Below are positions 32,101 through 59,900 of a DNA stretch of 64,000 nt, piece after piece. This DNA comes from Callorhinchus milii (lineage: Eukaryota). Position 1 is the stretch's first letter, and each line of letters begins with the position of its first letter. The notes below the pieces were generated by a model that was not told the origin of the DNA, searched no databases, and worked only from the letters and a program-made list of their open reading frames with translations. Position numbers and translations under genes: made by a program. Location: the NCBI RefSeq assembly GCF_018977255.1, contig NW_024704762.1, positions 7,440,001 to 7,504,000 on the forward strand, given 5' to 3'.

Positions 32101-35100
32101 ACGATTTTAATTCATCTGCAGAAATTGAGACGTCTTGACGACGTGATAAGGCGCTATATCAAATGCAAGAATTATTGTTGAATATGTTCTGTTTGGAAAA
32201 GACTGACGGAAAAAACTTGCACGTTGTCTGAATGAACAGTCTATTCCATCTTATTTACACTGAATCCTTTTTACTGTAATTTGGACTGGAATTCAATTGA
32301 GGTATCGTTCTAGTCATTACAGTGTGTTTAAAAAAAGCTGAACTAAAGAGACCAATAATCCAGTAACACCCAATCTTTGTAAATTGCAATAATAATAATT
32401 TAACAAGAACCTTTGTGTTTGATATAGCTGTCTGAAAGTACTTGTAGTGATTGTACCTTGTAGGCAAATCCATCTGTTGACCATAACGAAAGCCCTTGTG
32501 TTTAATTCAACCTTAGTGTTAGGATATAATAATAATTCTTGCATTTGATATTGCGCCTTATGACATCGTTGAGATTTCTCAAAGTGCTTTACAGAATATA
32601 ATCTAAAGTGGAGTGACTTTGAGTTTTGCGTGCAGCCAATTGCGCACTGTAGTGTCCTACAAACAGTTGTTTATAATATTTAGATATTATCGTTTTAATG
32701 CAGTTCATAGTTAAATGACTTTTCACTCTACTTTCATCAACCAACTGTGATTCATCTTCTGGTTGTTATGTGTTTCAATGCATTTTAGACGGAGAGCTTT
32801 ATTCGGCAACAGAAAACAATTTCCTTGGCTCTCAGCCGATTTTCCAACGCAGCCTTAAGGACAGTAGCCTGAGAACAGAGAACATTGGTTGCTGGCTGAA
32901 AAGTGCGTACATCCTGTGTGTAACAGTGGAAGGTTCCAGGAACTCCTTTCTCTCATCCAGCATGTTTTGGAGTCGGGTTATGTTTTGATCTGACCTTTGA
33001 ATTGAAACCAAACAGACCCTCCTCCCGCACTATCACCCAACCATACCAGATTCACAAGCTTTGACATCATTGGGTTTGATTCCTTCACTAGAGTCTTCTC
33101 CTGTTATTTATGCCTTCCCCTGTCTTTTATGTCCTGGTTCCTCCTCCCAATGCATACTTGAGTTTGAGTATGCCTGAACTCAACTGATAACATAGCCCAG
33201 AATCCTGTTTACCCTTGTTTATTGCTGCTGCGTTCTGCTTTGACAAGATGAGTGATGTGTCAATTGACATCCCTAGGTATCGTTCAGTTCCCCTTCCCCC
33301 TTCCCGCTCCCCAGCAGTTTCTCTTAACTGTTCGCAGAACAGTACTGATGTGAGCAAATCTACCGTAGATTTGCTCTGTGCAGTCATTCTGAATATCAAT
33401 GCATTTTATTTTGACAGATCCCAATTTTGTTTATGTGGACGTGGTGCGGGAGAGTGAAGACAGCCCCGAGGGTGACGAAGATAAGATTTACCTTTTTTTC
33501 AGTGAGGTGGCCATTGAGTATAATTTCAAATCTGAAGTACTGATCTCAAGAGTTGCCCGAGTGTGTAAGGTGAGTGCTCCGTGATGGGATGCCTTTGGTC
33601 TTGCTTTATAAATCAAACGTGGTGAGTCAAGTCACTTCACAAACATCTTTATATCTTATCTACTGTGTGGGCCTGCAGTGGGGATTCAGCCTGCGTAATT
33701 ATATAATCGCCTTGCAACAGCAGAGCGCACAAGTGCACTACTTAAGTTGCACAACTTAAGTAGCTGAAGAGACAAAAGGCAAAACATTTCAACCATTGAG
33801 GAGGTGCAGCTAATCATTGCCTGGATTGTCCCAAGGCGCTGGATGTATTCATTGTAGGGACTGTGTATTCTGGAGGGAAATGTGGTGGACAATTTGCTGA
33901 GAGTCACGTCCCAGAGAGAGTATCAGATAAGCCCCAGAACAGTAACAATATGTGATAAAAGGAAAGAACTGGAATGTGGGATTAATAACAAAGGATGATA
34001 AAATAGTCCATGGCACAGACACAATGGACCAAATAGCCTTCTTCTGTGACAAAACTTTGTAGGTTTCTTCACTATAGGATGGTGCAGAACCATTGGATTC
34101 GGAGCTACTGTTGTAAGTTGGAATATTATTATTATTATCATTATTATTAAAATTGATATTATTAATATATAATGTATTTTTGTTCATGTTTGTTCCGATG
34201 AGTCCAGGGGGATAAGGGTGGCCAACGGATTTTGCAGAGGAAGTGGAGCTCCTTTGTGAAGGCTGGACTTGAGTGCAATTTTCCTAAGTCAAACTATCCA
34301 TTTAATGTCATTCAGGATGTTTTTTTATTGAGGGCACCCAAATGGAGAGATAATATTTTCTACGCCACCTTCACATCACAGTGGTAAGCCAAAAAAAAGA
34401 CATTAAAACAAAATGTTTGAAGGTCAACCGCGTGAATAAAAGTATACAAGCATTTCCACCTAATGCGAGTGGAAGCTGCTTTAAGCGGACGCCAGTTAAA
34501 CTTTGGACGGCGGGTAAATTGGACAAAACGCCCGGTCCCGACTCATTTATATTCTTACCCGTTTTAAAAATGGCTTCTGACTCCGTTCAGCCACCAGTGG
34601 AAGCTGGTTTTGGAAGCTGCCCGCTGAGGCAAACTAATGTTACTCACACAGGAGCCTGCAGAACAACTCCGCAGTCTGTACTTTCACTATGGCGGCGATT
34701 CAAAAAGTATTTAACGAAGGAAACTTCAAAACATTTGATATAATTCATCACAAGATGATGGAGTCCATAAAACCAAATCCTGTGCCCCGTCCTGGAACTG
34801 TAAGTACAAGAACTTTCCAAACACAAAACAAAATCTGCACAACAATTAGAGGCTGCTTTTCTTTCTGCATAAAATGGAATACATGTTTACTTCCAGCCTG
34901 TATTTTTTGTTATGGAGAACGATCCTTGTATTTGATATGGTGACATTACTGTTGAAATAGCCAGTGTTGTAATAACAATAAATAATCCTATGATATAATA
35001 ATCCTTGCATTTGATATAATAATAATCCTTGCATTTGATATAATAATAATCCTTGCATTTGATATAATAATAATCCTTGCATTTGATATAGCGTTTTTCA

Positions 35101-38100
35101 CGTCTTCTAGACGTCTCAAAGCGCTTAACAGAATATACTGTAAACTGAAATGACTGTATATTTGTGGGAGAAACGCGGCAGCCAATTGTGCACAGCAGCG
35201 TCCCACAAGCAGTCGTGGATTGAAGTGACCAATTTTATCATTGTTTTTTTCTTGAGGGATTATTATCAGGCAAGGAAAGTTGCCCAAGGTTTCGCCCGGC
35301 CAGGAATCAAACCCAGGTCTCTCGCTTGCGAGGCGAATGTTCTACCACTGAGCTACAGGACACCTAGCAATTAATCACGTCTTTGAGACGTCTCAAAGAG
35401 CTTCACAGAATATACTGCAGAGAGAATTGACTGTATATTTTGTGGGCAAAATATTGTATATATAAATGTATGTGAGATGTACAATTGCAGGAGTTAGTAG
35501 CATTTGAAGGCTGTTGAAATCTGGTATTCTTGTTCTATCTAGTGTATCAATAATAATCTGACTAAGAGCGGCTATAAGACCTCTCTGGATCTGCCGGATC
35601 AAACCCTTCTGTTTCTACAAACGCATCCCTTGTTGAATGATGTGGTGATGCCTAAAGACAACCAGCCGGTGTTAGTAAAACAAGCCACTATTTACACCCA
35701 GATAGTTGTGCATAGAGTGACTGCCACCGACCAGAAGCAATACAACGTCATTTTCTTGGGAACAGGTAATTTGTACTCTGAAATATGTGCTTACTTTACA
35801 CTGAAGGAAATTTACACCAAAAGATCTGATTTAAGCTTTCTAAGTGTCCTTTTTAAAAGTGGACATCATACAAAGAAAGGTACAAATGCAGGAACATTGT
35901 ACGTAACCAAATATAGGCATTTCTCTGGATGTGTATGACTAATATGTAACCCGCAGTGAGTGAATGGCTTGCTGTTATAAGCAAATAATTATCTGTGAGA
36001 GTGAAGCTTGAGCAGTTTAAAGGCTTCAATAAAAATCAGAGCTCATGGCAGTGATACAAGTTCCCTGCTGCTGGCCACTGGTGTTTGTTCTCATCAAAAT
36101 GAGAGACGTCTATAGTATTCGAGTGAATCTTTAGGAGTTTCCGGGAGAAACTCCCTTGTCTTTTTGAAGAGGGCAATTAATGTCCACATGAACAGGCAGT
36201 GAGGACTTTGGTTGAAACATCTCAAGCCTTCTGAGAAAGTTTTTCTGTGGAATATTTTGGGCCTGGTTGATGACTTTGCACCAGAGAAACAAAATGTGGC
36301 CATTCAGAACCTGTAACATTAAACCTGGATGTTCACTCTTTTTTTTCAGACAAAGGATACTTGCATAAGGCACTGAGTATAACTGGGAAGATGTTCATTG
36401 TTGAAGAGGTACAGATCTTTCCTTCTGAGGAACCTGTGAAAAATCTGCAGATTTCACCAACCAGGGTAAAATAATAATAATATTTGATATAGCCCCTTAT
36501 CACGTCTTTGAGACGTCTCAAAGCCCTTCACAGAATATACTGTAAAGTGAATTGACTGTATTTTTGTGGGCGAAAAATAGTTTACAACAATGTGAATGCT
36601 GGGTGTAATTAATGTGTGGGGAGAATAGAATTTTTTTTCTTATGATGATAGCTTTCATTGATGTAAAATTGTTTTGCTTCCCAGGGTCAGTTGTACATCA
36701 GCTCCCCATCTCAGGTGGTACAAGTGCCTGTAGCTGTCTGCAGTCAGCACAAGACCTGCTGGGACTGTGTGTTGGCAAGGGATCCTTACTGTGCCTGGGA
36801 TACAATGTCAAGACAATGCCTCAACATTGCAAGCAAAGACAGCAAGTGAGTACCGAGCCTCCTCTGCATGTATGTTCCTAGTGTAGTGGGAAACCCTGCC
36901 TGCATATACTGGGTATGACTTTGGTTCTGTAAATCCAGATCAACTAAGGCCATTGTTGATGTGTTTCCCAGTTGGGTCTCATCTCAGCTGGGTTGGTCAG
37001 CACTCTTGCCTCTGGTTCAGAAGCCACACACATCAGGCCTTTAGTTTGTCATGGTCCAGGCTGAAACGCCAGTGAGGTATTGGGGGGCAGGTGGTGGGGA
37101 GGGAATGAGAACATAAGAAATCAGGAACAAGTTCATTTGGCTCTGCCACAGATCATTCCGTGGCCCATGCACCACAACCTTCCTTAAACCCACCTCCCTG
37201 CCATATCCCCTAAAATATTTACTCTCTAAGTAAGTCTTTGTCTGATCTTGCTGTACACAAATTGCCTGCCACATTTGCCCACAAATGAGCTTTTTTCCCC
37301 CAAACCAGAGGATGGATCCAGAACGTGGAGAACGGAGACGCTTCGGAATGCCCCAGTCCAAGTACGTACCCTGCGAGCAGCTTTCTGCAAAATCATCAAT
37401 TAAAAGGTCTTCTGGACTAAAGCTAGGTGCAATTTCAGACGTGGACTGGACTTTCCTGTTCACCCCTCTTGCCCCTGAGCTGAAGTCAACTGTAGTACCC
37501 TTACTATCGACCTGGCTCCGATCTAATACTGATAATCCTTATATTTAATATAGCGGTTTATCACGTTGTCAAAACGTCTCAAAGCGCTTGACAGAATACA
37601 CTGTAAAGTGGTTTCATCATTATGATGATCTACCTGAGATCCACTGAAAGCACAAATCAAGGATCCAACTCTCAGTTGTTCCTTGGGTTACAGTAAGGAG
37701 CCAAGTATCTGCACTAATTGGCTCTGGCCCCATCATAGATAAGCAAACAGAGTGGATAATTGAGTGTCAAATAAATTACAAATTAGCTATAGCGCTAACT
37801 AAAATATTGTTGCATTGGGCATTATCATAGTACAACACAGAATCAGCCTTCTATGCAGACAGACAATGCTACTGCTTTGGTATCTTTAAAAGATCTGGAA
37901 GCATGTCAGTTCTTCTGTAATTTTGTTTATAATACAGTTTAATACAATATTTTGATGGAATTGGTCATATTAAATCAAGCACAAATTCTCCTCTCTTCAG
38001 GAAGGGCTTCGCTACAATATCAAGTGATTATTCTGAAACATAGCGATTTTTTGAAATGCCATTCGACATCTAACCTCGCTCAGAAGGAGTGGCTCCTCAA

Positions 38101-38827
38101 TGGAGAGAAGCTTCCAACAGATAATTCAAAGTACATCCATATCAAGGATGGATTATTAATACTTAACCTCTCTAGAAATGACAAGGGTCAGTATGACTGC
38201 CAGGCTGTTGAAATGACTAATGGGAAAAAATTCACTCACATCCTGGCAAGTTATTCCCTGTTGCTCCGTGAATCTAGATCAGTTCATCTCTCTCGTCCTG
38301 CCATGTTTGAGCAACCGAATTGGGCTCCGAATCATAAATCTGGAGTTCTCTCCACCGCAAAGCGTGACATTTCTACCTTTGGTGCCCGGCAGCCTAATCT
38401 TTTGGTGACACAAAGAGACCTGCGGGCTAACGTTACAGTTCAGAGTTTCCTGGTTCTGTTTGTCATCATGTTTGGGCTTCTCCTGACGTGGAACATTTGG
38501 AAAGGCCATGTGCCTTTTCAGTGGATGAAGTGCATCCCTTCGAGCCATGTCAGCATCAAGCAGTCGCCAGCCAGCCTCCTCAAGAGCTCCGTGCAAAAGC
38601 TAGGAACAAAGATGCCACTGCAGAGGAAGCTGGTGACACCGGGAAACCAGCAACAGCCGAGGAACAACCTACAGCTTATGACCATCGCGAGCGAGAACTC
38701 ATTCAGGGGCAACTGCACCAGTAGCACCACCCTGGTAGACACAGCAAACTCCAGCTGTTCTAGGCCACTTTTTATTCTAGACGACCAGGAATACTTTGAC
38801 GCAGAGGAGCCTGAATCAAACGTGTAG
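29144..38827 (+). CDS. Class-4 transmembrane semaphorin, SEMA4D-like and probably the sema4e lineage, 833 aa; coding exons 29144-29267, 29402-29547, 30467-30529, 31186-31284, 31892-31991, 32789-32902, 33418-33569, 34208-34383, 34652-34799, 35543-35765, 36350-36465, 36685-36845, 37309-37361, 38001-38827
   Basis: Putative signal peptide; sema-domain motifs ([67 protein letters not shown]); PSI domain ([14 protein letters not shown]); Ig domain (LKC...W...DKGQYDC); TM segment; cytoplasmic tail ending ESNV. All introns are GT-AG; total 2502 nt, in frame. Confidence 0.93.
29563..29822 (-). mobile_element. Young SINE copy, 5'-truncated
   Basis: Near-identical to 50168-50380 (same diagnostic cacgtcgggaggacgtcccaaagcgc variant). 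Confidence 0.88.
29909..30252 (+). mobile_element. SINE, long subfamily with an extra internal segment
   Basis: Partial tRNA head, internal ctgtttacctagcagtaag...ggatcgctttcc segment, (TTA)n tail. Confidence 0.85.
34991..35364 (-). mobile_element. Full-length SINE of the same family with a tandemly repeated 24-bp 3' end
   Basis: tRNA-like head at about 35290-35364 (minus). The unit tgatataataataatccttgcatt occurs about 4 times at 34991-35083. Confidence 0.9.
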
Positions 38828-40290: not shown

Positions 40291-43200
40291 AGTCGGAGGG
40301 AGATCCCCTCTTCGACGTGAAGAACAATTTCTACATCGGCAGCTTCCAGCAGTGCATCAACGAGGCGCAGAAGATCAAGGTGGGTCCCGGGGAGACATGG
40401 AATGACAGGGGGGGGAGAGGAGCTGGGGCTGGGGTCCCGGGGGGGCTGGGCCCCAGGGGGCTGGGGCCCTGCAGGGAGGGGGCTGGGGCCCCAGGGGGGA
40501 GGGGGCTGGGGCCCCAGGGGGGAGGGGGCTGGGGCCCTGCAGGGAGGGGGCTGAGGCCCCTGCAGGGAGGGGGCTGGGGCCCTGGAGGGAGGGGGCTGGG
40601 CCCCTGCAGGGAGGGGGCTGAGGCCCCTGGAGGGAGGGGGCTGGGGCCCTGGAGGGAGGGGGCTGGGCCCCTGGGGGGGGGCTGAGGCCCCTGGAGGGAG
40701 GGGGCTGGGGCCCCAGGGGGGGGGGCTGGGCCCCTGGAGGGAGGGGGCTGGGGCCCCGGGGGGGGGGGGGGGGGGGGCTGGGCCCCTGGAGGGAGGGGGC
40801 TGGGGAGGGGACCCCGGGGAGATATAGAACGACAGGGGACTCCGGGGGTAGGAGGCTGGGCCCCGGGCTATATAAACGGAGGAGGGGGCTCCAACTGCGG
40901 CAGTGAAACATTTCCCTGCATTTCGTTGGTTTAATTCTTAATTGTTTGGGATGTGTTTTATCTTCCAGCTCTCCAGACCAGAGAAGGAAGTTGAGAGAGA
41001 TGTGTTCCTGTACAGAGCTTACATTGCACAGGTAATAATAATAATAATGATGATGATAATGATAATCCTTGTGTTTGACATAGCGCCTCATCACATCGTC
41101 GCCAGGTCTCAAGGGGCTTCACAGGTGAGACTGTGAACTTCCCGTGTCGTAGCCACTGTTTTGAGGTGGCAGCCAATCTGCACCAGCAGCATCTTGCACT
41201 CAGTGACACGAAAGACACCCTCCCAACAACAACACCTAACATTTATATAGCGTCCTTCATGCGGGATAGCTTCCCAGAGCACTTGAAATAAGCGCTCAGT
41301 ACTGTACAATCCACCCCCCCCCCCCCCAATATTACCCAGAAGCTTTATTGTACTCTAGCGCTGCTCAAAAGTGAATGTTGATCAGTGATGTATTTTTGTT
41401 TTCTCCCTCTCTCCCCACCCATCAGAGAAAATATGGCGTGGTATTGGATGATATCAAACCAAGCTCTTCCGCAGAATTACAGGCTGTCAGAATGTTTGCC
41501 GAATATTTAGCCAGTGAGGAACGAAGGTGGGTGTCTTTAATCTTACTGTCGAGGTGCAGCATATAGACTGTGAGCGAGTTGCAGTGTTTTGCTGAACAGT
41601 TTTAGTTAGTTTCGTATTTCATTTACAGCTTTTGGTGTGAATATTTGTTTTGTTTTTTAGTGACTAATTAGATGAATGTCTTCTGAGAGCAAACCTGTTC
41701 AACAGTATTTTCCGATGAACTGTCATTTTCCCGATGTAGATTCCTTCGGTGGTGTTCCTGTGTAATGTACTGACCGGATCGCTGCTCTAAGAGATCTGTT
41801 CAGAATCTGATGTGGACTCATCAGAAATATATATTACCTTTACACTTAAAATAAATGTCTTGTAGTACTTTGGAATGTAATCTACGAGGAGAGCTCAAGG
41901 GGTTGCTTTATCGTGCAGAGATGGCATCACGGCCGAACTGGACAAGAAAATGGCAAAGAGTGTTGATGTCAGCAACACCACCTTCCTCTTGATGGCTGCC
42001 TCCATATATTTACACGCGGAAAACACTGATGCTGCGTTCCGTACACTGCACCAAGGGGACAGCCTGGAATGGTGAGTCTCTTTCACTAACGCCCGCACCG
42101 TATTAGATTATGGCAGAGCTCAGATGTGTCTGCTTTCAGCCAGGACCCACAAAACCTGGAACCTTATGCTCCCACATTTGCTGCTCAGTAAAGACTGAGC
42201 TGCCCCTGAGCAGTTTGTTGTCTGCGTGGAAGAACAAGGCTGATGATCCCTTTTCGCTCTCTCCACAGCATGGCAATGTCCATCCAGATCTTCCTGAAGC
42301 TTGACAGGCTGGACCTGGCTCGGTAAGCTGCTGAGTCGCCACATGGAAATGATTTTGTTCCAGTAAACCTATATGCACATCGTCCAGAACAATCGAGTCA
42401 TAAAATAAAAACCACTTTATAATAATCCGTGCATTTGATACAGGTAGCTCAGACCTCCTGTCCCATTGCAGTATCACTGACTTGATGCATTTTCTCAGGA
42501 AAGAGCTGAAGAAGATGCAGGAGCAGGATGAGGACGCGACTCTGACACAGCTAGGCACGGCCTGGGTCAACCTGGGAATGGTGAGTGACAGCAGTTGGTG
42601 CTAGCTGGCTGGCATAGCAAACACGCGTTATTCATCCTGAGGAAAGATCACAGCTATAACATTAGTTCTCTGCTTCCAAGTATCGTGCCTCTTTGATCGT
42701 GGCCCATCGTGCCTGTGGTGGCTCTTTGATAGACCTACCCAACTAGTCCCGTTCCCTGCTTTCCCTCAGTTTATATTTCTATTTTTCAGCTTTCGTGTAT
42801 TTTGCTCTCTCTCTCTCCCCCCCCCCCCCCCACCCAATGGTGAGAGTTTGATTGGAAGCTCACGGCATTCATCAGCCCTGGTAACTTGCAGGCACCTCGG
42901 CTCTACAACTGCGAGCACGGCTGTGATTATAGAAACCCATGCGGAGAGGCTTCAGTTCCTAAAGGTGTTTTAATAATATAGTGGAGATCCATGGGGTGTG
43001 TGTATGGATACTGTTGTGTTTACTGTGTGACTCTTCAGCGCTGGGTGCAGGTAAGCTGCTTAGTGATGTACGTTCCCCACCCCCCCCCCCCCTCACCACC
43101 ACCACACTAACCACTGTTTAACCTGCTCGCAGGGTGGAGACCGGCTCCAAGACGCTTACTACATCTTCCAAGAAATGGCCGACAAGTACACAGCCACCCT

Positions 43201-45357: not shown

Positions 45358-47665
45358 ATTATTGTCAGTGTGTTCTGTGACTTTGTGATTAAATCGATGC
45401 TCTTCCTTTGTGCTGGAGGTAATGTTAGTAACATGATGTGAGCCTTGCTCTGATAGCTTTTAATATCGGGCAAAGAGGATTGATGTAATTCCTGGGGGGT
45501 GGGGGGTTGAGAGAGTATTCACCATCAATTTCCCAGGGGCACTAAAGGCAATTTCAGAGCTGCCTACCACTCCCTTAACTGAAATTTGTTGACAGTGCTG
45601 CAAGGGGAGGGCAAAGGGAGAGAAGATATTTTAACTAATTATCTGGGCATTTCTTTATGGAACAAGGTTAAGTAATGACTTGATGCGTTCTTTGGAAGCT
45701 CCTTGAAATTCCTACTACCAGTAGCTGGTTTGTCAATAGAGCCAGAGATTGGTGGAAGGGAAATTTTGAAGTATTTTTCTTTGAGGGGCGTGGGGCTGGG
45801 GAAGAATGATTATTTTACGTGAGTTCTGATCTCAGGCATGATTCCGCCTGGGGAGGGAGGGTGTGGAGATTAACAGCTTCTCACCAAAGCTCCCCGAACT
45901 ATAAAAGATTGCCTTTCATGTCCTGACCTGTCACTGGTGTTTTGTCTTTCCCCTAATCAATTGATGTCAACTCACAGCTTTGATTTCAAATGAGCATTGA
46001 CATGACAGATTGTCAATTACTGTCAAAAATGCTAACATCACTGTTGAGAAGACATTATCTGAGGTTCCCATTCCCCTCTGCAGGTAAATGTTAAAAAGAT
46101 GCTTTGGTACTATTTGGAAGAAGAGTGGGGAGTTTCTTCCGGTGTCCTCCCTTGTCCAAAAATTATTATTAAAAAAANCGGTCGTTCACATGAATGGGAC
46201 AAGACAAGTGAAGTAACCCACGGAGATTCATTCCTCTTCTGGTGGGTGTAAAAGTGACGGATTCTTCTTGCTTCACAGCAGAAGGTTGTTCCCAGGATTT
46301 TCCAAATTGACAAGAAATTCACTCACCTTTCCGGTTGGTGTCAGAAACTTCCATCCAACAGGTTGCACCTGCCTTTGGAATCGCAGGCAAATCTCAGCCA
46401 GGTGATATTTCAGCCACTTATATTGATGCATTAACCCCATGAGCACCGGATCAGTTTCATACACAAGAAGTCTAAGACTAGAGTTGGTAACGGGAATAAA
46501 ATGGATAGAGGTGAATATTCTCCAATTTATAATTAAGCATCATTCTCACAGCCAGGAGAACAGGAGCCTTCTCTGATTCATTAAATTGTTGAAATTCCAA
46601 AGGGATCCAGTGCAGGAAGGGTTACATTTATAAATAGGAGAAAAAAAACTCCACTGGGAAAGAAGAAAGCTGGGAGTTTTACTGTGAGAGAAGGTGAGTG
46701 AGGAACATTGTTGTTTTATTCTGACGATTTGAATATTGTGGGATGTTTGAAGCTCGAGCTTGGAAACAGCAAAACGTATGTATTGCACCCAGTGTCAGTG
46801 TCCAGCACCAACTTTATAATGTGGTTTAAATACAGAGTAAAACTTTCTTACAAGATGCTTTAAATTGTAGAATATATCTCTCCACTCCAGTTTAATACAA
46901 AGTAATATAAACTTCAGAAAAGCGCCCTCTTGTGCATCCTTGTGATAGTTTCCACTCCTGCCTCTTTTATAATAATAATTCTTGCATTTGATATAGCGCC
47001 TTATCAAATCGTTGAGACCTCTTAATGCTACATCAAGTTTGTGCTGAATTCTGAACATCATTAGTGAGGATTTGGCTCATTTTATCATTTTATCGGCTCA
47101 TGTTTTGTGGACTTGAACCTCGATCAGAACGGTTCTTGGTGTCTCTGGCCTGGAAAAAGATCAGAGGTGAATGGGCAGTTTTCACCTGTCCTCACGGAAC
47201 TATTCTGCTCTGTTTGCAAACAGCTGCTCTCGTGTGCAGAGGTTGTGAGGGAGATTCCCAAGAACAGTGGCATGGATTAGTAAATATGGCTCAATGTGTT
47301 AGTTACTAATCTGTAGATCTTCATACACCTGAAGCTATGGAACTTTCTTCCTCTACCCCTCCACCTTTGGCTTTCATCAGATCGCACCTGAAGCCCTTAA
47401 AAAAAAACAATAATAATAATTTGTCTCAATCCAGGACTGTCTGTGGGACACTGCTGCGCCCAATTGACTGCCGTGTTTCGCCCACAAAATACACAGTTTT
47501 GTCCTCTTTACAGCATATTCTGTGATGCGCTTTGAGGCGTCTCAATACTTGATAAGGCGCTATATCAATTGCAAGGATCATTATTATTAGTAACCGAAGG
47601 AGCAAGCCTCTGATCAGCTATCTGTTGTGTTGCTGGACTCTGTGCATTTTGTCCTTTGTTCTCAG

Positions 47666-50600
47666 ATGGATCCGAGCTACAGAATGAATCTGCGTTCTTC
47701 CAAAGCCCTGTCTTTGGACCCTCAGACCCTTGACTACAGCCAGACGTGCAGCAAATCCCCACGTCAACGAGGGCGAGGAAAGGTATCGAAGATGCTGTGC
47801 TGCACAAGAGAAAAACGTACAACAGCGAAACCCTCCAAGGAAGGGAATAAAAGGATTGGGCATCATTTGGACAGTAAACATCCAACAAAAAGGGTGAGAA
47901 TTAGTTTCTGTGTCACTGGGCTAGAGAGATAAAAGATCAAGCAGGATTCTTGCACCTGATCACCACACTGTTTCATTTGGCAACTCTCGTGCGATATTTA
48001 ATTGAGCTCAAGATTTTTAAAGGGAACAAAAATTTCTTTGCTTGTTTTCTGAGACAGTCTTGGTTGGTTATAGAATCGTAGCATCTTACAGCACAGAAGG
48101 AGGCCATTCAGCCTATCATGCCTGTGTCGGCTCTTTGAAAGGAGCTATCCAATTATTCCCTCTCCCCCGCTCTTACCCTATAACCCTGCATATTTTTCCT
48201 TTTCAAGTACATTTTGCCCACACGTTTCGCCCATAAAATGTAGTCAATCCACTTTGCAGTGTATTCTGTGAAGCGCTTTGAGATGTTGCGAAGACGTGAT
48301 AAGGCGCTATATCAAATGCGAGGATTATTATTATCATTATTATTATTGCATATCCAATTCCCTTTAAAGGGCTCACATTGACATTTTTAATTTTTTAAAT
48401 TTTAAAATGTAAGGTCTGTGATTTGCCTTTTCTTGCTGTTGTCACAGGCTAAAGGAGACACAGGAGCTCCAGACAAACAACCTGATGGATACGATTCACA
48501 CACAACTACCCCCAGAGCCACGAGGCTGGCAGCAAAGCGCTGGTGGGACCCACCACTGAACAGCACCGGTAGAGACTTCATTGTCTGCTCCGTGATCCAT
48601 GTAATGTCAGAAGCGCTGAGCGACGTCTCGAAGACGTGATCAGGCGCTATATCAAATGCAAGGATTAATATTAATATTATTAATGTTCGTTAGCACGGTA
48701 ACAGCAGCATTCAGGAGGCATTTCAAACAGACGGGCATTGGTCTTAAAAGATCTGCCAAGATGTAATGACACCTGGGTTTGGTTTTTGGTTCATTTCAGG
48801 GTGGCAAGTTGTTTTACTAAATTCCTTTCTCCGCACCCCTCCCCCCCACCACCCCTTCCCCACCCCTTAGATTTGCAGAGTCTGGAGTATGAAGAGGATA
48901 TGGAGTCTATGGAGATGCCTTTATCTGTCTATTTTTCAATGCCCTCATCTTGGCACTTGGAGGAAAAAAGCGAAGTGCTTAAGCAGTAAGTACCTGAGCT
49001 GGCTGACTCGACTGTCCAGACAACCTGAAGATGGGGAAGGAGGAGGCAAGATGGAGGGATTGAGGGCGAGTGTTTGCAATAAGTTACAGTTGGGGCATAT
49101 TATTAGGGTATTGTTGGGGAAGTTTCACTCTGCATCTTGTCTGTATGACGTGTTGCTTTGGGAGGAATGAATACATAATTAATATATTTTTGTTGGAAGT
49201 TCAATTTGTTTAAAACTTCCTTCAGACACAAATTCATCGAACGACTAATATCCTCATCAGAGCAGCATCCACCATCTCAGAAACCCAGCCTTCCCGTCCA
49301 GACTCGCAGTGTTCCCAGTCACACCCTGGTTCTGGGGCTGGTGAGTACAACTACAACAACTTGAATTTATCTAGTGCGCTTAATACGGGTAATGAAAGGG
49401 ATTATTACCCCCTGGAAAGCGATCCGCTAATCGACTTAACAATCAGGTTCCTACTTACTGTTAGGTAAACAGAGTAAGGAAGTAAGTGTGGAGTATGGAA
49501 CGTGCCTCAGATTGCACCCTCCCCAAGAATCGAATCTGGGTCCTCTTGCTTGCTAACCATTAACCTGCGGGACTCCAGAATATTTACAATCCAGGAGGCC
49601 ATTTGCGTTAGCATTTCTCCTTGTTCACCCCACTGGACCTCTCCACTCTAATCCCATTTCACTAACTGCCTGTTAATCCAGTCTCTGTCTCTCTGATCCC
49701 CAGGATGAGACTCTTGTTCATTGCGAGCTGGTTCCAATGGAGAAAGTAGAATTCCAGTTCCCAGTCCATTTTCAGGATAACAATTACCAGGTTTGCCTTT
49801 GTCAATTTAATAAAAATGGGGGGAACTTTATGATCGATTTGGTTACTTGTTGTGTGGCCACAACAGTAATGCCCTGTTAGTCTGGCACTTACAGCAGAGG
49901 GGGCGAGGGGGATATATCTGCTAAAGAATCTGTGAATGAACTGTTTGAGACAGCATCAGCCTCAGTGCATCTCTCTCTCTCTCTCTCTGTCATGTCTTTG
50001 TTCTTTAAACACAGCCCCAGTGTGCAAGGCCCTTTTCAGTTCCCTCCCTCTCCCTCTGGGATGTCTGTGGGTTTATCCAGTGAGCAGCTGTTCATGTAGA
50101 TAGAGGGGCAGCAAGTTCAGCCGTGATCTAATAGAATGGCGGAATAGACTTGAGTGGCTGAATGGCCTATAATAATAATAATCCTTACATTTGATATAGC
50201 GCTTTTCACGTCGGGAGGACGTCCCAAAGCGCTTCACAGAACACACTGTAAAGTGAATTGACTGTATATTTGTGGGCGAACGCGGCAGCCAATTGCGCAC
50301 AGCAATGTCCCACAAACAGTCGCGGATTGAAAACGACCAATTTATTATTGGTTTTGGTTTTGGAGGGATTATTATTAGGCCTACCCCTCAGATGGAAAAA
50401 TTAGTCATCGTTCCTGTTCCTGGTAACCAAATCTTCTCAACATTGGCTGTAAATTCGAGATCATTCAAAAATCTGAGAAGTGTTTAAATTCAGTAGTCAT
50501 TTTGAAAGTCGGTTTTCCACAGTTCTGCAAAAGAAACCGGCTTCCAAATTAGGACCGGGTTTAAGAATTTCTCCCAGTTCTGCTCGCTCGCAAATTTTTA

Positions 50601-53569
50601 AGGTGGATTTATTTTAAATGCCTCATTTAATTTATTTCCTCGCCTCCACCCTGTCACGCTGGTTTGCCTTTCAGGTCTACATGCAATTGAGGCCTCACTG
50701 CAGGACCTTCCTGGAGAGCTTATCCCAGATCTACGAGGTAAGGAGCGGAAAGTCACCCCTTTTCTTATGTTGGATATGACACACCAGCCTCATCTCAATA
50801 GGTGACACCTGAGAATTGAGCTGAAGCTTTTTGTCTTGGTCTCTGATCCAGTATCTAATAGAGTCAGCATGTTGCCACCTGTCCAAAGTCTCGGACAAGG
50901 GACTCACTTGCCCACTTTGTTTTCCCGTCAGATCATCGTGTTCACTTCCGCCACGAAGGATTACACGGACAAATTGGTGGATATCCTTGACCCAAACAGG
51001 CGGCTGATCAGGCAAGTATTGATACCGGTGCGAAAGCTCCACCCTCGAAACACAGGAGGTGCCTGCTGTTTGAAAAGAGAAGCAATTTCCAACCCCCTAA
51101 CCGCCCACCCCACTGGTGTCTTGCGTGGCTTTTTCACTGAACTGTTAAGATCACAGTTGGTTGCACCGTATAGAAGAGGGAGTGAAATGTAGAAGTGGTT
51201 GATTGATCTGGTTGATCGATCAGTTGGCTGCCGCATTACGCCCACAAAATGCACCGCCACCACACTTTACAATATAGTCTGTGAAACGCCTCGAGAACGT
51301 CTCAACGACATGATAAGGCCCTACGACAAATGCGAGAATTATGATTATAATTATTATTATCTAATATAATGTCTCTAATATCACATTTCTCCCCTCCCCC
51401 CCCACATACATACACACCGGCTGCAGACACTGTCTCTTCAGGAAACACTGCCGATGCGTGCAAGGAAGCTATGTCCGGGAGCTGAGTGTCCTCGGGAGAG
51501 ACTTAGCAAAGACTGTGGTTGTGGACAGTTCCCATGAGGCTTACGCATTTCAGGTACAATGAGAGGTGCTTTGTAATTGTGATATCCACTGTGGTCAAAT
51601 ACCGTCAACACTCACTGTCTGGGCTCACACAGAAAGTGCCCACTTTTGGTTAGATACCAAAGGTAACCCCTATGACCGTCTCCAACACCGTCAGGAGAGG
51701 AAAGGGTTAGAGAAGATTGTCACCCACTAACCCTTCCTAAGCCTACAGCCTCTCTTCCTAGATCACAAACGGAATTCAAGTCAAGAGCTGGTTTGAGGAT
51801 CGCAGAGACCAGGAGCTCCTTAAGCTGCTGCCTTTCCTGCGTCTGTTGACTGAATTGGTGAGTCCTTGACTTGACTGTGTCTCAGAGAACGAGGTTCCCA
51901 GGAGGGGGGATTAAGGAAGAGTAACTCTTCCTTATGTTCTTGGTGGGAGGGAGGGAACAAATGATTTTGTTTATTTACATCATTTACAGGCCCATTGCCT
52001 AAGGGGAAGTTCCCACCCCCCTCCAAACCACCCCTTTTTTTTGCTAAGCATACTGTTATATAATAATAATCCTTGCATTTGATACAGAGCTTTATCGTGT
52101 CGTCGAGATGTCTCAAAGCGCTTCACAGGATATACTGTAAAGTGGAGTGACTGTGTATTTTGTGGGTGAAACGCGGCAGTCAGTTGCACACAGCAGCGTC
52201 CCACAAACAGCCATGGAGAGTGAGTGACTGATTTATTTGGGGAGAAGATATTGGCCACAACACTGGGAGAAATTACCTTCCCTTTTTAAATGTGCCCCAA
52301 AACTCTGGGACACTCTCCCTCAATCTCTCCGCCTTCCACCCCTCTCTCCCCTCTTTTAAGTCCCTCCTGAAGACTTTACTGTTCGTCCGTGCTTACGACC
52401 ACCTCCCCTCTCCCCGGCTCGGAATCAGATTCCGCCACTGTTAAGCGCTCTGAGATGCTACCCTGCGTGGAGGGTGGGGGGCTATTTAAGTGTAAGTTGT
52501 TGTTGTTGTGCCATGGGATCTTTAATGTCCACCTGAACAAGCAGACGGGGACCTCGGTTTAATGTCTCACCTCATATATTGCCTGTGATACATAACTTCC
52601 TGGTTCATTTAGTTCTGTGGGGGGCGGTGGGGTCAAAATTAGCTCAGAGGAGGGGGTTGCTGGGGGGAACTCTTCTAAAACCTAAGGGGGGATGATTCCC
52701 AATTGAAGGCATGAGATGTCTCGGAGTTCAGTAACTTATCTCGTGCCTTCAATTTCTAAATAGCGCAAGTTCTCCCGTTTCTTGGCCTCTAGAGTGTCCT
52801 TGGGCCAAGTCTCAGGGTTAGGATTCCCACCACCCCATGTCCTCTGTTATCATTGGCGAGGAGCTCCGCTTCGAAACCTGACACGGTCCTCATATAACTT
52901 GCTCCAGGTTCAGCTGTTTAAACTCCACCTGAACCCCAAAATAAACCACTTCCCGAAGAGTTCAGATGTCAATGATCAGTGAGTCCTCAATCCTGTGAGG
53001 TCCCTGTGAGGTAGCGTAATGGTTAGAGCACTCGCATCGCAAGCAGGAGGCCCCGGGTTCGATTCCCGGACAGGGCTGGGCGAAACCTACGGCAAGTTTC
53101 CTTACACACACACACACACTCCTCTACTGACAGTAAGCAGGAACCCGGTTGCTGGTCGATTAGTGGATCACTCTCTGAGGATGATTATCCTTCCAAAAAA
53201 GAAACAAAAAGTGGTCACTCAATCCACGACTGTTTGTGGGACACCGCTGTGCCCAATTGGCTGCTGCATTTCGCCCACAAATACACAGTCAATCCACTTT
53301 ACAGTATAATCTGTGAAAACACTTTGAGACGTTTCGACGACATAAAGCGCTATATCAAATGCGAGGATTATCATTATTATTTGAATGTTAGTGAATTGGG
53401 ATTGCGATCTCCTCCCCCACCTTTCCCCCCGCGCTCTCTTCCCCCCTACCCCACCCACTTTCCCCCACCCCCTCTTTTCCCCCCTTTTCCTTGTATTCAA
53501 TTAATAAACTCTTCCTAATCTCCACAGAGTGACGTCCGGCCTGCGATCAACCAGAGCCAACGGCTCTAG
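47666..53569 (+). CDS. CTD small phosphatase-like 2 paralogue (FCP/SCP HAD domain) with degenerate active site, about 357 aa; exons 47666-47893, 48448-48568, 48871-48985, 49226-49340, 49704-49790, 50675-50737, 50932-51011, 51427-51553, 51762-51857, 53528-53569
   Basis: C-terminal exons translate [27 protein letters not shown]...[127 protein letters not shown].../[13 protein letters not shown], collinear with CTDSPL2. The three N-terminal exons rest only on splice sites and phase, so they are less certain. Confidence 0.88.
50168..50380 (-). mobile_element. Young SINE copy, 5'-truncated
   Basis: Near-identical to 29575-29783. Confidence 0.88.
52999..53381 (+). mobile_element. Full-length SINE, long subfamily
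   Basis: tRNA head with GGTTAGAGCA and GGTTCGATTCC, internal segment, standard tail. Confidence 0.85.
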
Positions 53570-53719
53570 GGAGCTTTTCCCAGGACTGAGAACCTGTCAG
53601 CTCGAGATTAGCTCCGGTTCCATTTCAGCCCCCCGGCCTCCGGTCCCTACAGTTGATGTCTCGTTCCTTTCTGTCTCGCAGCTAATTTGTTCTAAGTTGA
53701 TGCCTGTTCCCTGAGAAAC

Positions 53720-53725
53720 AATAAA
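53720..53725 (+). terminator. Polyadenylation signal of the CTDSPL2-like gene
   Basis: AATAAA 150 nt after the stop codon. Confidence 0.55.
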
Positions 53726-55304
53726 GATTTATTATTTTAATACTTTGACCGATGCCCGGCGTGCAGTTTTCATGTAGTGTATATGTAATTACATATAATT
53801 TAATGTGATGTGTCTTGTCACGCCTTCGAGACATCTCAAAGCGCTTCACAGAATGTACTGTAGAGTGAATTGTCATTTTGCAGGCGAAACCGTGTAATGT
53901 GCTGTTATTGTTAATTTAGGACATTCACAGCTCCCTCCCCCCCACCCCACCCACCCACCCACCAGCCCCCAGCCTCCGGCACGCATTCTAGGGCGGGGAG
54001 CAAGTGTGACATGTTACGTCGGGCATTTTATGCTGTGATCAATTAGGTCTTGTACTGTTTAATACCAGCCTGCGGAGAGAGAGCGAGAGAGAGATGGGGG
54101 GTGGGGGGGGGGGGGGGGAGAGAGCTGTGCGGAAAGAGAGGTGGGTGGTGAGAGCTACTCACAGTTGAATGAACCAAACGGATGACGAGATCCACAACCC
54201 TTGACAGCCCATAATATACGGGCTGGGGAATGGTGCAGTGGAGGCGCTATTTATTTGTGTGTGTGTGAGAGAGGAGAGAGGGAGAGAGAGAGGGCTGAAC
54301 CTTTGTAAGATGCCCTTGTCCTCTCTCTCTCTCTGTGTGTGTGTGCGTGTCACACACATTACACAGTGCGACAAAAGATCCGGCCACATATTAACGCTGC
54401 TAATAAAAGAGGTGACGATCAGGGAGGAGGGGAGGGAGGGAGTGGAGGGGGGGGAGAATGCAGAACGTGCGTAATTATTTATATTAGGGGGGAGATTAGC
54501 GAGTGACAGGCGAACCAAGAGCTGCAGAGACACAGAGAGAGAGAGAGAGAGAGAGAGTGTTGATTTGCGCTGTATTTGTCTCTCTGACTGTGTCGCACTG
54601 TGGGAGGTTCCTGTGCGACGGGAAACGTGATCTAACTTTAAGATCAGCTCGTGCTTTGGGGTGGTGGGGGGGGGGGAACAACAACGACGACAAGGTTACC
54701 TTTGTACAGCGCCGGGAGGACGTCCCAAGGCGCTGAAACTCAACGACAGAACAGCCTGGTCCTGTCGCTTTTCCTTTAACACGATCCCCTCCTTCTCTCC
54801 CCTTCCTCCCTCCTTCCTTCCTTCCTTCCTTCCTTGCTCCCCTCTCTCTCGCTCTCTCTCTCTCGCTGTTCCGACCTCTTGTGAACAATCTCGAACCGTG
54901 AGGTTTTGGAGGCTGTAAAGGAAGGGGATGATTGGGGGGGGGGGGGGGGGAAGGAGAGGGGGGGGGGGGGGGAGGAAAAAAAACTTGACAACCTTTTTGC
55001 GCCACCAACCGGAGATGGAGAGAGGAGAGAGAGAGAAAAAAAACCTTTTCAGCTGAAATTGACATGAAAATGGACAAGTGGTGAATACACATCAACCTTT
55101 CTCTCTCTCTCTATTCCCTTTGAGGACAGTGAGACACAGTGTTTTTTTTTTTTGGGGGGGGGGGGGGTACCCCAGGACACAACTTACTTAACCATTTAAA
55201 TCATCTCTTTTTTTCTGAATGAACTGGGGGGGGAATTAAAGGAGGAGGGAGGAGGGATTTGAGATCAATCCAGGGTTTTGAATCTGCTAAAGCTTTATCC
55301 ATTG

Positions 55305-55863
55305 CACTCCCCCCCACACACACCCCCTCCACTCCTCCTCCCCCCCCACACACACACCCCCCCCCCCCCCCCACACACACACCCTCCCCCCCACACACAC
55401 CCCCTCCACTCCTCCTCCCCCCCCCCCCACACCCCCCCCCCCCACACACACACACACCCTCCCCCCCCACACACACCCCCTCCACTCCTCCTCCCCCCCC
55501 CACACACCCCCCCCCCCCCCACACACACACACACCCTCCCCCCCCACACACACCCCTCCACTCCTCCTCCCCCCCCCACACACCCCCCCCCCCCCCCCAC
55601 ACACACACACCCTCCCTCCCCCACACACACCCCCTCCACTCCTCCTCCCCCCCCCCACACACACCCCCTCCACTCCCCCCCCCCACACACACACACCCCC
55701 CCCACACCCCTCCCCCCCACACACACCCCCTCCCCTCCTCCCCCCACACACACCCCCCTCCCCTCCCCCCCCCCCCACCCCCTCCCTCCCCCACACACAC
55801 ACACCCTCCCTCCCCCTCCACCCCTCCCCCCCCCCCCCCCACACACCCCTCCTCCCCCCCCAC
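55305..55863. repeat. C-rich compound minisatellite (C runs, CA runs, CTCCACTCCTCCT) upstream of CERS1
   Basis: Directly visible; it accounts for the Pro/His/Thr-rich and Gly-rich ORFs. Confidence 0.95.
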
Positions 55864-56958
55864 GTGTCGGGCGGTGATTAGGAATCTTAAAACCTACGAA
55901 GGTCTAAAGGTCTTCTCTGTGATCATCAGCGGCGACAGAGAGAGAGAGAGAGATTGTGTCTAATAATAGGGGGAGTGTGTGTGTGTGTGTGAGGTGTGAG
56001 GGTGAGGTGTGAGGGGTTTGGGGGGTGTGAGGGGTTTGAGGGGGGAACAAAAAATAAGGGGATCGATCAGATCAGACGGTCGGTGTCGGTGTCGGGACAC
56101 AGACGGTTTGTTACGCGGTGCCTTTTCCTCCCGCGTTTCGTCGCCGTTTTCTCTCCTCCTCTCTCCTTCTTTTTCTTTTCTCTTTCGCTTTCCTTTTCTT
56201 CAATCCCTCTCTCTCTCTCTCTCTTTCTTTTCTTTTCACTTCTTCTTCTCCTCTTATTCGTATTTACGCGACTTTTTATTTATTTTGCGTCGAAATTCGA
56301 GACACCGCGTCGGAGAGAGGAGAGATTTTAAAAATATTTTTTAAAAAACAGTGTTATTGTATTTATTACGAAATAATGATGTAAAAATCTCTTCATATCA
56401 TCTCTCTCTCTCCCCTCTCCCCCCCAAAAAAATAATATATACCCCCCCCCCCCCCCCCCGGGAGGAGGGGGTGTGAGGGGCTGTTTGTTACCCCATCGGA
56501 CAGAGCTTTATTGCTCAATCGCAGCGAAATACCTCATCGTCTGCGTCTCTCTCTCTCTGTGTCTCTCTCTCTCTCTCTCTCTGTATATATATATATATAC
56601 ACAAAAAAAAGAGTTAATTTCCGGGTCTCTCTTTATTTCCGTATCCTTTCTTCTGATTTTTTTTCTCTCTCTCTCTCTCTCTCTTCTGATCGGCGCTCTC
56701 GAACCACACTCTCACGGCGACGAGAGAGAGAGAGGGAAAAAAAATAATTTGAGGGGGTGAGAGAGGGGGTGAGGGGAGAGGGTGAGGGAGGGGGAGAGAG
56801 GGTGGTGGTGGGGTTCTCCCTTGTATTAAGGCACCCATTTTTTTTTGGGTGGGGGGGGAGAAGAAGGGGGTGAGGGGGGGGGTTGGGTTGGGGGGTTGGT
56901 TGGGGGGTGGAGTGGGGGGGGTGTGTGTGTGTGTAAAGGGGGTGTTTCGTGGCTGTGA

Positions 56959-59900
56959 ATGGCGATCAGGGATCCGGGGCAGGAGGAAGATGCCAAGAGG
57001 CTGGTGATGATGATGATGATGGTGAAGGAGGGGGTACAGCAGCAGCAGCAGCAGCAGCAGCAACAGGGGGTGGTGGGGGTGGGGTTGGGGGGTGTCCAGG
57101 GGGGTGTCGAGGAGATGCCCGGCTACGCCGAGATGCTGGCCAAGAGCTTGGGCTCGCTGACCGCGGCGTGCGTGGAGTGCCGGGGCTGCGGCTTCGACCT
57201 GACCCGCCGGACCTTCGTCCAGCACTGCTGCCTGTCCGCCACCGACGCCCTCCTCTTCGTGCTCTGCGCCGTGACTTGGACTTTACTCCGCAAAGCCACC
57301 ACCAGCTGCTTCTTCCAGGTCGGTTTTGTGGCTTCTTTTCCCCCTTTCCACCCCACCCCCCCCCCCCCACCCCACACACTACCACCCACCCCCACCACCG
57401 CCGCCCCCACCCACACCCCCACCACCCGGCGTCTTTTTTTTAAATGAATAATTCGTTAATTATTAACAACAATAATAATCCTTGCATTTTGGATCCCCAC
57501 CCACTCCCCCTATTGGGTCTTCGAGACGTCTCAAAAGCCCGCAGCGGGTGAAGCGTTAAGCTTCGGGGTAGGGTTTTTTTTTTGCGGGGGCCGGGGGGGG
57601 GGGTTTCAGGGTTTTTTTGGGGGTGTTTGCGGCGGCAGGGGGAGTAGGGGGTGGGCAGGGGAAATCGAATAAAATTCAATCTTCTCATTTTTATTTATTT
57701 TTGGACATTCAGTTGTTTCCGCTCCGGGAGGGAGGGAGAGAGAGAGAGAGAGAGAGAGACCGCATTCCATTCCGGCAATCTTATCTGCAGGATTTCCATG
57801 TGTCGGTGGGATGCGCGGGATTCTCGGTTTGGTTTGGAGACTCTCAAAAGAACGGTGATGGGTTTCCGTGTGTGTCAGACATGCTGCCCGACCTAAAAAA
57901 AAATATGTGTATATGTATGTATATATATATATATATATATAGTATCGTCGATCAGCAGAGAGAAAGAGAAAGAGAAACGTACACAAAGTCACGTCTCAAA
58001 TCCCCAAACCTCCCCCCAACGCTGTCAGTCTGTGAAATGTTAAAAGCCGTTGTTTATCGTATTTACTCTTAATCATTTTATATATATATATATATATGTG
58101 TGATGTTGCATCATGCCTAACCTGTGAAAATATGATGAATAATGCGTAGCCCTAAACTGCTGTTGCTGCTTGCTTGCCTCCCGCTGGGAGATGCCTCCTG
58201 TGCCCTTGGGTGCTTTGCCCGAGATGCGGTGGTTTCTGCTGTTGTGCCCTGATGGTTAGTGTCAGTGACCGCAGATGTCCACCTACGTGCGCTTCCCCTG
58301 GCTGGAGATCAGCAGCCGGGACCGGTTGGTGTGGGCAGCAAGAGTGGGAGGGACAGCCTCAACACAGACATAACGGGAAGGGAGCAGGGAATTGGGATTA
58401 GGGTAGGAATAATAATAATAATCCCTGCATTTGATAACAGCGCCTTATCACATCATCGAGACGTCTCAAAGCACTTCACTGCATATGCTCTGAAGTGGAT
58501 TGACTGTGTATTTTGTGGGTCAAACGCGGCAGCCAGTGTCCCACACACAGCCATGGATTAAGTGACTAATTTTATTTGGGGGCAATGTTGGCCAGGACAC
58601 CGGGAAGAGGAACTCCCTTCTCTTTTTGAACAGCGCCATGGGATCTTTAACTGTCCACGTGAACAGACAGATGGGACCTCGGGTTCAACGTATTATCCGA
58701 AGGGCTGGTGCTGCAGCGGGGGAAAGCGACTATCAGTACTTTTGTGTTGCAAACCATACCGGGAGATCAACAAAATCAATGTCCAGTTACCTTTTGACTG
58801 CATCGGTTTTGTTAATCATTAACACATAACAGGAGAACTTTGTTATCCTGCTCAGTGGTGGTGGGAGGCGGAGGGGTGGGGGGGGAGTTGGGACATGCAG
58901 AGCGGGCCAAGTGGGTTCATTCTCACTTGACAATGTTCTAATGCAGAATCATTTAGATATGTACTGTATAATTTAGTTAATTTTCCCATATTAAAAAAGA
59001 AACACAGATAATGTTGACCTTGGTACATCTCTGCCATAAATACCCGCTTGTTTCGTTTAAAAATGACAAGAGCCAAGTCTGATTTGTGGGAAGAGTCGGT
59101 TGGGAATTCAAACCGGCCATCAGCTCCCCAGATATGCCATTCTACCCCCTCCCCCATCGACACGCTGAGGAATAATGGCCCTCTTCACCATTTGTTACAT
59201 TCCCCACATATTTATTGTGACATTTCACAACTGCATTCGTTTTCCGACAAGACAAAAAAAACGTTTAGCTTTTTGCAAATCCTATATTCATCACTGAAAG
59301 ACTGGATTAACCTTTACTTAATTCTCTTTTTATGATAATATAATAATAATGATCCTTGTATTTGATATAACAGCTTATCGCATTGTGTTGAGACACCTCA
59401 AAGTGCTTCACAGGATATACTGTAAAGTGAATTGACTGCGATCCATTTCTCACGCTCTCAAAATTCCTTGAGGACGAGAGAAAATGAACGGCTCCCATTC
59501 AGGTTGTTCCGATCATCCTGGGAAACAGGTTTGGACGAAACACCCAAATGTTTACAAGACTTCTTGTGCTTTGGCAACAGTTTTCATTCACGTGGTGCTG
59601 AAACTCACACACGTTTGTTAACTTTAGAGATCACAGAGGTATTGAACTTTAGAGGTATTCTAACTTAGTCTCCTCACCAGAAGTTGCTGACTGGTGCTGG
59701 CGACCACTTGAGACCTCAATCGAGTGGCTATTGGAGGTTGAGGGCAAACACTAGACAGAGGCATATTGTGCACGTGACGTGAGAGCTCAGAATGGGTCAG
59801 TGTAGAGGAAGCTTTGCTCTGCATCTACCCCATTCTGTACTTGACCTGAGGAATTCTTGTTGTTGCAACTTGCTTTACAGATAAACTTCTAGTAATAACA

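Follow-up and report, generated by a model that had tools for sequence, protein, structure and literature searches.

Elephant-shark ctdspl3, a CTDSPL2 duplicate that has lost its catalytic aspartate and is probably a non-enzymatic member of the FCP/SCP family

Results

The ctdspl3 gene and its transcripts

The DNA analyzed here is a window of 64,000 nucleotides (nt) from the elephant shark, Callorhinchus milii (contig NW_024704762.1, 7,440,001-7,504,000, forward strand), and all coordinates below are positions in this window. It carries ctdspl3, a gene of the FCP/SCP phosphatase family, whose ten joined exons form an open frame of 357 codons plus stop with AG acceptors throughout and GT donors at all introns except intron 7 (GC at 51012-51013). 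The 357-residue product is identical to database record P0001 (XP_007896971.1), named 'CTD small phosphatase-like protein 3' by NCBI, and carries a Gly, G192, in place of the Asp nucleophile of the family. Based on our data we propose that it is probably, though far from certainly, a catalytically dead duplicate of CTDSPL2 that works as a non-enzymatic adaptor via a remodelled pocket. A first-pass annotation of the window had described ten exons in frame followed by a polyadenylation signal, the codons GGG at 49335-49337 and CGG at 51476-51478, and motifs reading LVLGL (continued by DET across an exon junction), YVREL and VDSS; the 357-codon frame, the AATAAA at 53720, both codons and the motifs in the translation all agree with that description. 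It had also suggested that the gene may be related to fish ctdspl3, which is correct and can be made more precise: by NCBI name and by clade the gene is ctdspl3. Its features are as follows.

46743..46775 (+): upstream coding exon of a longer isoform, adding 11 N-terminal residues; database isoform P0004 begins with the matching residues, and a GT donor follows the exon
47666..47893 (+): coding exon 1 (residues 1-76), encoding a disordered basic N-terminus of low predicted local distance difference test score (pLDDT) in the model; its start motif is also found in CTDSPL2
48448..48568 (+): exon 2; runs X2 and X3 join it to exon 3 (loose ends)
48569..48870 (+): intron 2, containing a repeat fragment; elasmobranchs encode here about 47 additional residues, including a V-x-F core, which the elephant shark is without
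48871..48985 (+): exon 3, from the frame and run contigs
49226..49340 (+): exon 4, where the FCP/SCP domain begins, from the frame, run contigs and domain match
49335..49337 (+): codon GGG, G192, replacing the Asp nucleophile (SCP1 D96), from the sequence, SCP1 alignment, runs and family alignment
49704..49790 (+): exon 5, whose first residue D194 is the retained acid/base Asp (SCP1 D98), from the frame, run contigs and alignment
50675..50737 (+): exon 6, with conserved RP and R228, from the frame and alignment
50932..51011 (+): exon 7, in which T248 of motif II is kept, then the GC donor; the X2 contig spacing agrees with the splice
51427..51553 (+): exon 8, with R275 (SCP1 R178, kept), R287 (K190), E288 (D191), D303 (D206, kept) and S304 (N207), from the frame and SCP1 alignment
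51762..51857 (+): exon 9, from the frame
53528..53725 (+): exon 10, coding until the stop at 53569, then 3' untranslated region with AATAAA at 53720-53725; contigs of X2 stop at 53715 and those of X3 at 53712

Intron 7 (51012-51426) is a GC-AG intron, and the CTDSPL2 intron at the equivalent place has a GT donor.

The sequencing runs are only presumed to be of RNA, and the splicing itself is the evidence. One X2 contig of 1,014 nt spans the motif I junction: it joins exons 3, 4 and 5 at their GT..AG ends and extends into exons 8 and 10 at a spacing that equals exons 6 and 7 together and exon 9. Exon 2 is joined to exon 3 in X3, a run from a study separate from that of X2, and an X2 contig carries 39 more nt 5' of 47666. 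The Gly codon is covered by X2, X9 and X10 with no alternative letter listed. The first-pass annotation had named GAC or GAT at this codon in raw reads, or a lack of spliced transcripts, as findings that would overturn it; GGG stays unchanged in three independent runs and spliced contigs come from two studies. An assembly error at the Gly codon is rejected, as X2, X9 and X10 agree. All three runs differ from the window at 48732 (an inserted G), 48782 (an intronic change) and 48974 (a synonymous change in exon 3), the last being the only exonic difference.

The active site and the predicted fold

Residues were mapped via an alignment with SCP1, with the numbering anchored on D96 and on D206, the latter as given in Protein Data Bank (PDB) titles. 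The protein contains the NIF/FCPH domain (PF03031, 180.7 bits versus a cut-off of 21.8). Compared to SCP1 it has G192 for D96, R287 for K190, E288 for D191 and S304 for N207, and it keeps D194, T196, R228, T248, Y254, R275 and D303. Accordingly motif I, DxDx(T/V) with an Asp nucleophile, is lost and reads G192-L-D194-E-T196, the Thr of motif II is present (T248), the Lys of motif III is Arg in elephant shark (R287), and at the D-(D/N) position of motif IV D303 is kept and the second residue is Ser. Our literature search found no paper testing a K-to-R change at motif III.

A structure model built from 135 sequences (a first attempt with 19 sequences was unusable, pLDDT 44) has pLDDT mostly >90 in the domain and low confidence in the N-terminus. 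It matches the SCP1-peptide complex 2ghq with Z 27.0 and a root-mean-square deviation of 1.5 Å over 179 aligned residues (Foldseek E 5e-22), and an ESM Atlas search returned NIF clusters only.

In Fcp1 the first Asp serves as the nucleophile and also binds Mg, the phosphate is held by the Thr and the Lys, and mutation of this Asp to Asn abolishes activity, according to the available part of PMC4436666; the roles of the catalytic residues in the family are described also in the accessible sections of PMC7281111. Because this first Asp is replaced by Gly, the canonical reaction is predicted to be impossible, and elephant-shark CTDSPL3 is, as predicted from its sequence, a dead enzyme. Without the first Asp no phospho-aspartate intermediate is possible and one Mg ligand is gone. 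Being intact, spliced and of conserved fold without one essential catalytic residue, the protein has the sequence and fold features of a predicted pseudophosphatase. We regard it as very improbable that the chondrichthyan protein is still an enzyme, one that employs D194, E288 or D303 for a changed mechanism or for another substrate: D194, T196, T248 and D303 are indeed kept and E288 is fixed together with G192, but the double role of the first Asp and the loss of Fcp1 activity upon the Asn substitution (PMC4436666, in its available part) argue against it, and our literature searches, none of them aimed at such a precedent, turned up none.

Conservation across cartilaginous fish

The nucleophile position is Gly in 13/13 chondrichthyan records (two partial) and in one further skate record, whereas it is Asp in 13/13 CTDSPL2 records; the D-to-G change is thus common to other chondrichthyans, as the first-pass annotation had asked, and a young pseudogene is rejected. 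The motif III K-to-R change that it had listed is present here but is not fixed in chondrichthyans, as position 287 is Arg in 10 and Lys in 2 of the 12 aligned records (one further row is truncated); of the named changes G192 and E288 are fixed, the latter being Glu in 12/12 aligned records. In the 11 full-length records 80/173 domain columns are invariant, 14 of which differ from CTDSPL2, and mean conservation is 0.94 at 19 pocket positions of our own choosing compared to 0.86 elsewhere. Over 7 chimaera-elasmobranch pairs the domain is 66-74% identical, and over 4 such pairs the N-terminus is 32-43% identical. Judged from these alignments, the altered pocket is conserved, not drifting.

A dispensable duplicate under relaxed selection, in slow decay toward loss, would leave long branches relative to CTDSPL2, and such branches are seen, together with motif changes that differ by lineage, an N-terminal segment lost in the elephant shark, truncated or exon-skipping database models and no placental-mammal member among the 91 matches listed. 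Nevertheless the frame is open in all 11 full-length chondrichthyan records. The span of these fishes is roughly 400 million years. Moreover, conservation of the domain is roughly double that of the N-terminus, the substituted residues do not themselves vary, and the single exonic difference in X2, X9 and X10 is synonymous, so that we consider decay decidedly unlikely. The core idea of the first-pass annotation, that a non-catalytic protein has been retained and is not decaying at random, is supported by the shared Gly, the splicing, the conservation of the domain versus the N-terminus and the SCP1-like fold.

The CTDSPL3 family and its origin

Relatives were recovered by profile search from ray-finned fish, lungfish, amphibians, turtles, crocodilians, squamates, pigeons and marsupials, and no placental-mammal CTDSPL3 was among the 91 matches listed (7,994 candidates scored). 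Several CTDSPL3 database models are truncated or exon-skipping. A tree with CTDSPL2 and ctdspl3, proposed by the first-pass annotation, was built from 66 rows, comprising 31 of the 72 CTDSPL3 records, 11 CTDSPL2 and 24 outgroup rows (mostly unnamed). A branch with support 100/95 separates the 31 CTDSPL3 rows from all others, CTDSPL2 included, and among the CTDSPL3 rows the chondrichthyans are sister to the rest; this clade spans jawed vertebrates up to marsupials and has the named ctdspl3 proteins inside. Placing the chondrichthyans with CTDSPL2 is rejected by the approximately unbiased (AU) test (p-AU 0.008), within the limits that long branches set to this and to the second AU test considered in the Discussion.

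The places and phases of the domain introns are the same as in CTDSPL2. An intact CTDSPL2 is present in the same genome on contig C22 and ctdspl3 lies on contig C21, and CRTC, insulin-receptor-family and convertase P-domain genes are each found on both contigs. The introns and this paralogous block indicate that CTDSPL3 is likely a duplicate from early vertebrate genome duplication.

A discordant clue comes from newt record P0302 (Lissotriton), in which an ADAMTS-like protein is fused to ctdspl3 and the ADAMTS-like part best matches C22, not C21; the fusion is likely a read-through gene model. This clue would suit a scenario in which the chondrichthyan gene and the bony-vertebrate ctdspl3 are separate fast duplicates joined by long branches, with the PP1 motif described below irrelevant here. 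We find this hardly probable at all, given the 100/95 clade with a topology that largely follows the species tree, the p-AU of 0.008, a derived Ala at the SCP1 S154 position shared by all aligned records, the V-x-F at the same aligned place, and databases that name both groups CTDSPL3.

Two observations on related records were made in passing. The CTDSPL2 record P0334 (Heterocephalus) has several near-active-site substitutions, some of them CTDSPL3-like, and is possibly a retrocopy or a model error. The metagenome records P0132, P0133 and P0295 have four tandem FCP/SCP domains, several with an altered motif I.

Core residues in other lineages

Among the 72 CTDSPL3 records the core residues vary by lineage. 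Ray-finned fish keep the first Asp in 11/11 records, with Glu for the second Asp in 6 and Gly at motif IV in 2, and lungfish CTDSPL3 has all five core residues intact. In amphibians the first position is Asp in 22, Glu in 3, Ala in 1 and a gap in 1, and the second is Glu in 13, Asp in 7 and a gap in 7. The first position is Glu in 15/18 sauropsids (one has Gly and two are truncated), and the one scorable marsupial has Glu. As lungfish, bichir, eels, salamanders and some frogs keep the five core residues, ancestral catalysis is probable.

The RVxF motif and PP1

CTDSPL3 N-termini were scored for the PP1-docking RVxF consensus, with 16 CTDSPL3 records with short or missing N-termini left out. 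The consensus is present in 39/56 scorable CTDSPL3 N-termini versus 6.5 expected from shuffles, and in 0/100 CTDSPL2 records versus 14.4 expected; as related species are not independent, no p-value is attached to this excess. The motif aligns from sharks to crocodilians, and in 40 sequences that were chosen for having the motif just five N-terminal columns are invariant, two of them being its V and F. A looser core, V[HRQK]F, counts three percomorph fish via a different motif, and that count was not used for them. A Ser/Thr-Pro site lies ≤12 residues upstream of RVxF in 18/20 amphibians, 6/6 sauropsids and 1/10 elasmobranchs. In the elephant shark a decayed RVxF exon in intron 2 was considered and rejected, as the tblastn hint (E 0.088) failed a shuffle test (560/1000), and no good RVxF was found in intron 1, intron 3 or upstream of the gene.

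Complexes of this PP1-docking type have already been solved. When Xenopus residues 68-116 were modelled together with a stand-in PP1, the predicted complex scored 0.41 versus 0.00 for the best control, which lends weak support to docking; the runs share ≥36% of contacts, the partner pLDDT is ≥36, and alignments were not used. The mark applied to this score was reached by 51/78 solved and 2/108 mismatched pairs in a benchmark made without peptides, but the pairs that reached it with a score of ≤0.60 comprise just 5 solved ones together with all 4 of the mismatches that passed. In the orthologues the RVxF of CTDSPL3 would be a likely docking site for PP1.

Neighboring genes and other features of the window

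Upstream of ctdspl3 lie a semaphorin gene and COPE (Coatomer_E matches), and downstream a TLC-domain gene, which we take from its translation to be CERS1. The first-pass placement between COPE and CERS1 therefore holds for COPE by domain matches and for a TLC-domain gene on the other side, the name CERS1 itself being assigned from the translation. The semaphorin (~31100-38827), just upstream of COPE, has PSI and Ig domains and a cytoplasmic tail, and its best paralogue match is on contig C1; it is presumably of class 4. The first exon of the ceramide synthase gene (56959-57380) has poly-Met and poly-Gln runs near the N-terminus. GC-rich tandem low-complexity arrays are found at 40400-40830 (COPE intron 1) and at 55200-55900 (upstream of the ceramide synthase gene). 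A very abundant repeat is spread across the window, with 31 matches to one 16-base core, 7 of them in or near ctdspl3, and tRNA-Ala-like elements at 8856, 35292 and 61904 are probably heads of short interspersed nuclear elements. Beyond the window, positions 7509000-7534000 of C21 hold a USE1-like exon and an insulin-receptor-family gene with a receptor paralogue on C22; the names USE1, INSR and IGF1R are our assignments from translations.

Discussion

We propose that the early genome duplications of vertebrates likely produced CTDSPL3 as a copy of CTDSPL2, and that this copy could probably still catalyze at first. Its N-terminus would then have gained an RVxF that likely docks PP1, upon which its own catalysis would have become dispensable and been lost several times through different substitutions. 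In cartilaginous fish the pocket would have been rebuilt, with G192, A250, T251 and E288 fixed, T248, R275 and D303 kept and usually R287, into what is likely a metal-poor site for phosphorylated or acidic partners. In the elephant shark the RVxF segment would have been lost, and therefore only the pocket function would remain.

An extended version of this proposal, which we offer tentatively and as a possibility we hold to be rather less than even, is that CTDSPL3 is a PP1-targeting subunit derived from a CTDSPL2 duplicate: with the RVxF gained beside CDK-type sites, catalysis may have passed to PP1 and the active site may have been lost at least three times (Gly in cartilaginous fish, Glu in caecilians, Glu in amniotes), such that active, half-dead and dead stages would be found in living lineages and the elephant shark would represent a later, pure-binder stage.

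Known systems of the same fold or motif bear on both proposals. CTDSPL2/SCP4 is a nuclear FCP/SCP phosphatase (available parts of PMC8796272 and PMC13400628). CTDSPL3 shares with it the Pfam NIF domain, 58.6% domain identity in the same species, the domain intron places and a related N-terminal start motif, but it lacks the Asp nucleophile, has K-to-R, D-to-E and N-to-S changes near the site, a shorter N-terminus and much faster evolution, and in most orthologues the RVxF that none of the 100 CTDSPL2 records has. With SCP1/CTDSP1 (2ghq, 4ygy) it shares the predicted fold and the equivalents of D98, T152, R178, Y158 and D206, and differs by D96 to Gly, K190 to Arg, N207 to Ser and L155 to Thr at 36% identity. 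Tim50 of yeast is a non-catalytic receptor use of the FCP/SCP fold. It has the same fold (PDB 3qle, 4qqf; Z 23.3), but it is a mitochondrial membrane protein of an ancient separate branch, whereas CTDSPL3, a vertebrate duplicate, shows no evident transmembrane segment. Finally, CTDSPL3 orthologues resemble PP1-targeting subunits such as Repo-Man in that a disordered region carries RVxF, preceded within 12 residues by a Ser/Thr-Pro site in most bony vertebrates. Repo-Man/PP1 dephosphorylates H3T3 (PMC13400628, in its available part), and CTDSPL2, the parent enzyme, acts on H3T3 too; by this analogy a mitotic role for CTDSPL3 is a lead only. Unlike in Repo-Man, a dead HAD phosphatase domain would serve for targeting, and the elephant-shark copy, by its sequence, is without the motif.

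Alternatively, the protein could act as a substrate trap or as a dominant-negative competitor shielding CTDSPL2 substrates, two of the three roles that the first-pass annotation had proposed. The phosphate-contacting T248, a basic residue at 287 and the groove residues R275, V214 and Y254 are kept, and a dead SCP can hold peptide, as D96N SCP1 was solved with CTD peptides (2ghq, 4ygy). However, in human CTDSPL2 the D293A mutation abolishes STK35/PDIK1L binding (PMC8796272) and D295N weakens histone H3 binding with no effect on H3pT3 or aneuploidy (PMC13400628), both according to the available parts of these papers, and the 14 fixed differences from CTDSPL2, several of them in the groove, suggest other partners. 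As these mutants lose or weaken binding and show no dominant effect, a simple trap or dominant negative is disfavored, the two earlier roles are weakened, and we consider them unlikely.

The adaptor proposal itself faces several difficulties. By analogy with the dead CTDSPL2 mutants, which bind their partners less well, a dead pocket need not bind well. The CTDSPL2 domain is 98% identical between chimaera and shark versus 66-74% for CTDSPL3, and as far as such comparisons go the CTDSPL3 domain is constrained yet has a much higher rate of evolution than its parent, a pattern also compatible with relaxed constraint. All five core residues are found in 13/72 records (5 ray-finned fish, lungfish and 7 amphibians), some of them altered elsewhere nearby, and therefore the family is not uniformly dead. 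The best tree has CTDSPL3 outside vertebrate CTDSPL2, and a vertebrate duplication, though not the best tree, is not rejected (p-AU 0.47); in addition, a MEF2 paralogue was found on C21, not on C22. As for the RVxF, the full consensus occurs at the aligned site in only 3/11 elasmobranchs, though V-x-F does in 11/11; percomorph fish, pigeon, monitor lizard and the one scorable marsupial are without it at that site, and the elephant-shark N-terminus has none, the whole segment being missing and the sole pattern match lying inside the folded domain.

The gene is already annotated as CTDSPL3 and pseudophosphatases are a known kind of protein, Tim50 being one with this fold. In the literature we found ctdspl3 as one entry in a table, under 'protein dephosphorylation', while two other papers matching the name concern Toxoplasma; searches of open-license full texts yielded none that deals with what CTDSPL3 does, with its dead site or with its RVxF. 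None of the 20 gene-loss papers listed names ctdspl2, and the main text of PMC3296468 mentions neither CTD nor phosphatase. A review whose accessible part lists seven human family members does not have CTDSPL3 among them (PMC7281111).

With this finding the vertebrate FCP/SCP family gains what is probably a pseudoenzyme branch, which phosphatase catalogues built around human genes would overlook, and as CTDSPL3 is present in zebrafish-type fish and Xenopus it is directly testable. The repeated loss of catalysis by different routes, together with the surviving, apparently intact forms, would provide a natural series from enzyme to pseudoenzyme. If the RVxF works as proposed, one phosphatase class would have been turned into a targeting subunit of another.

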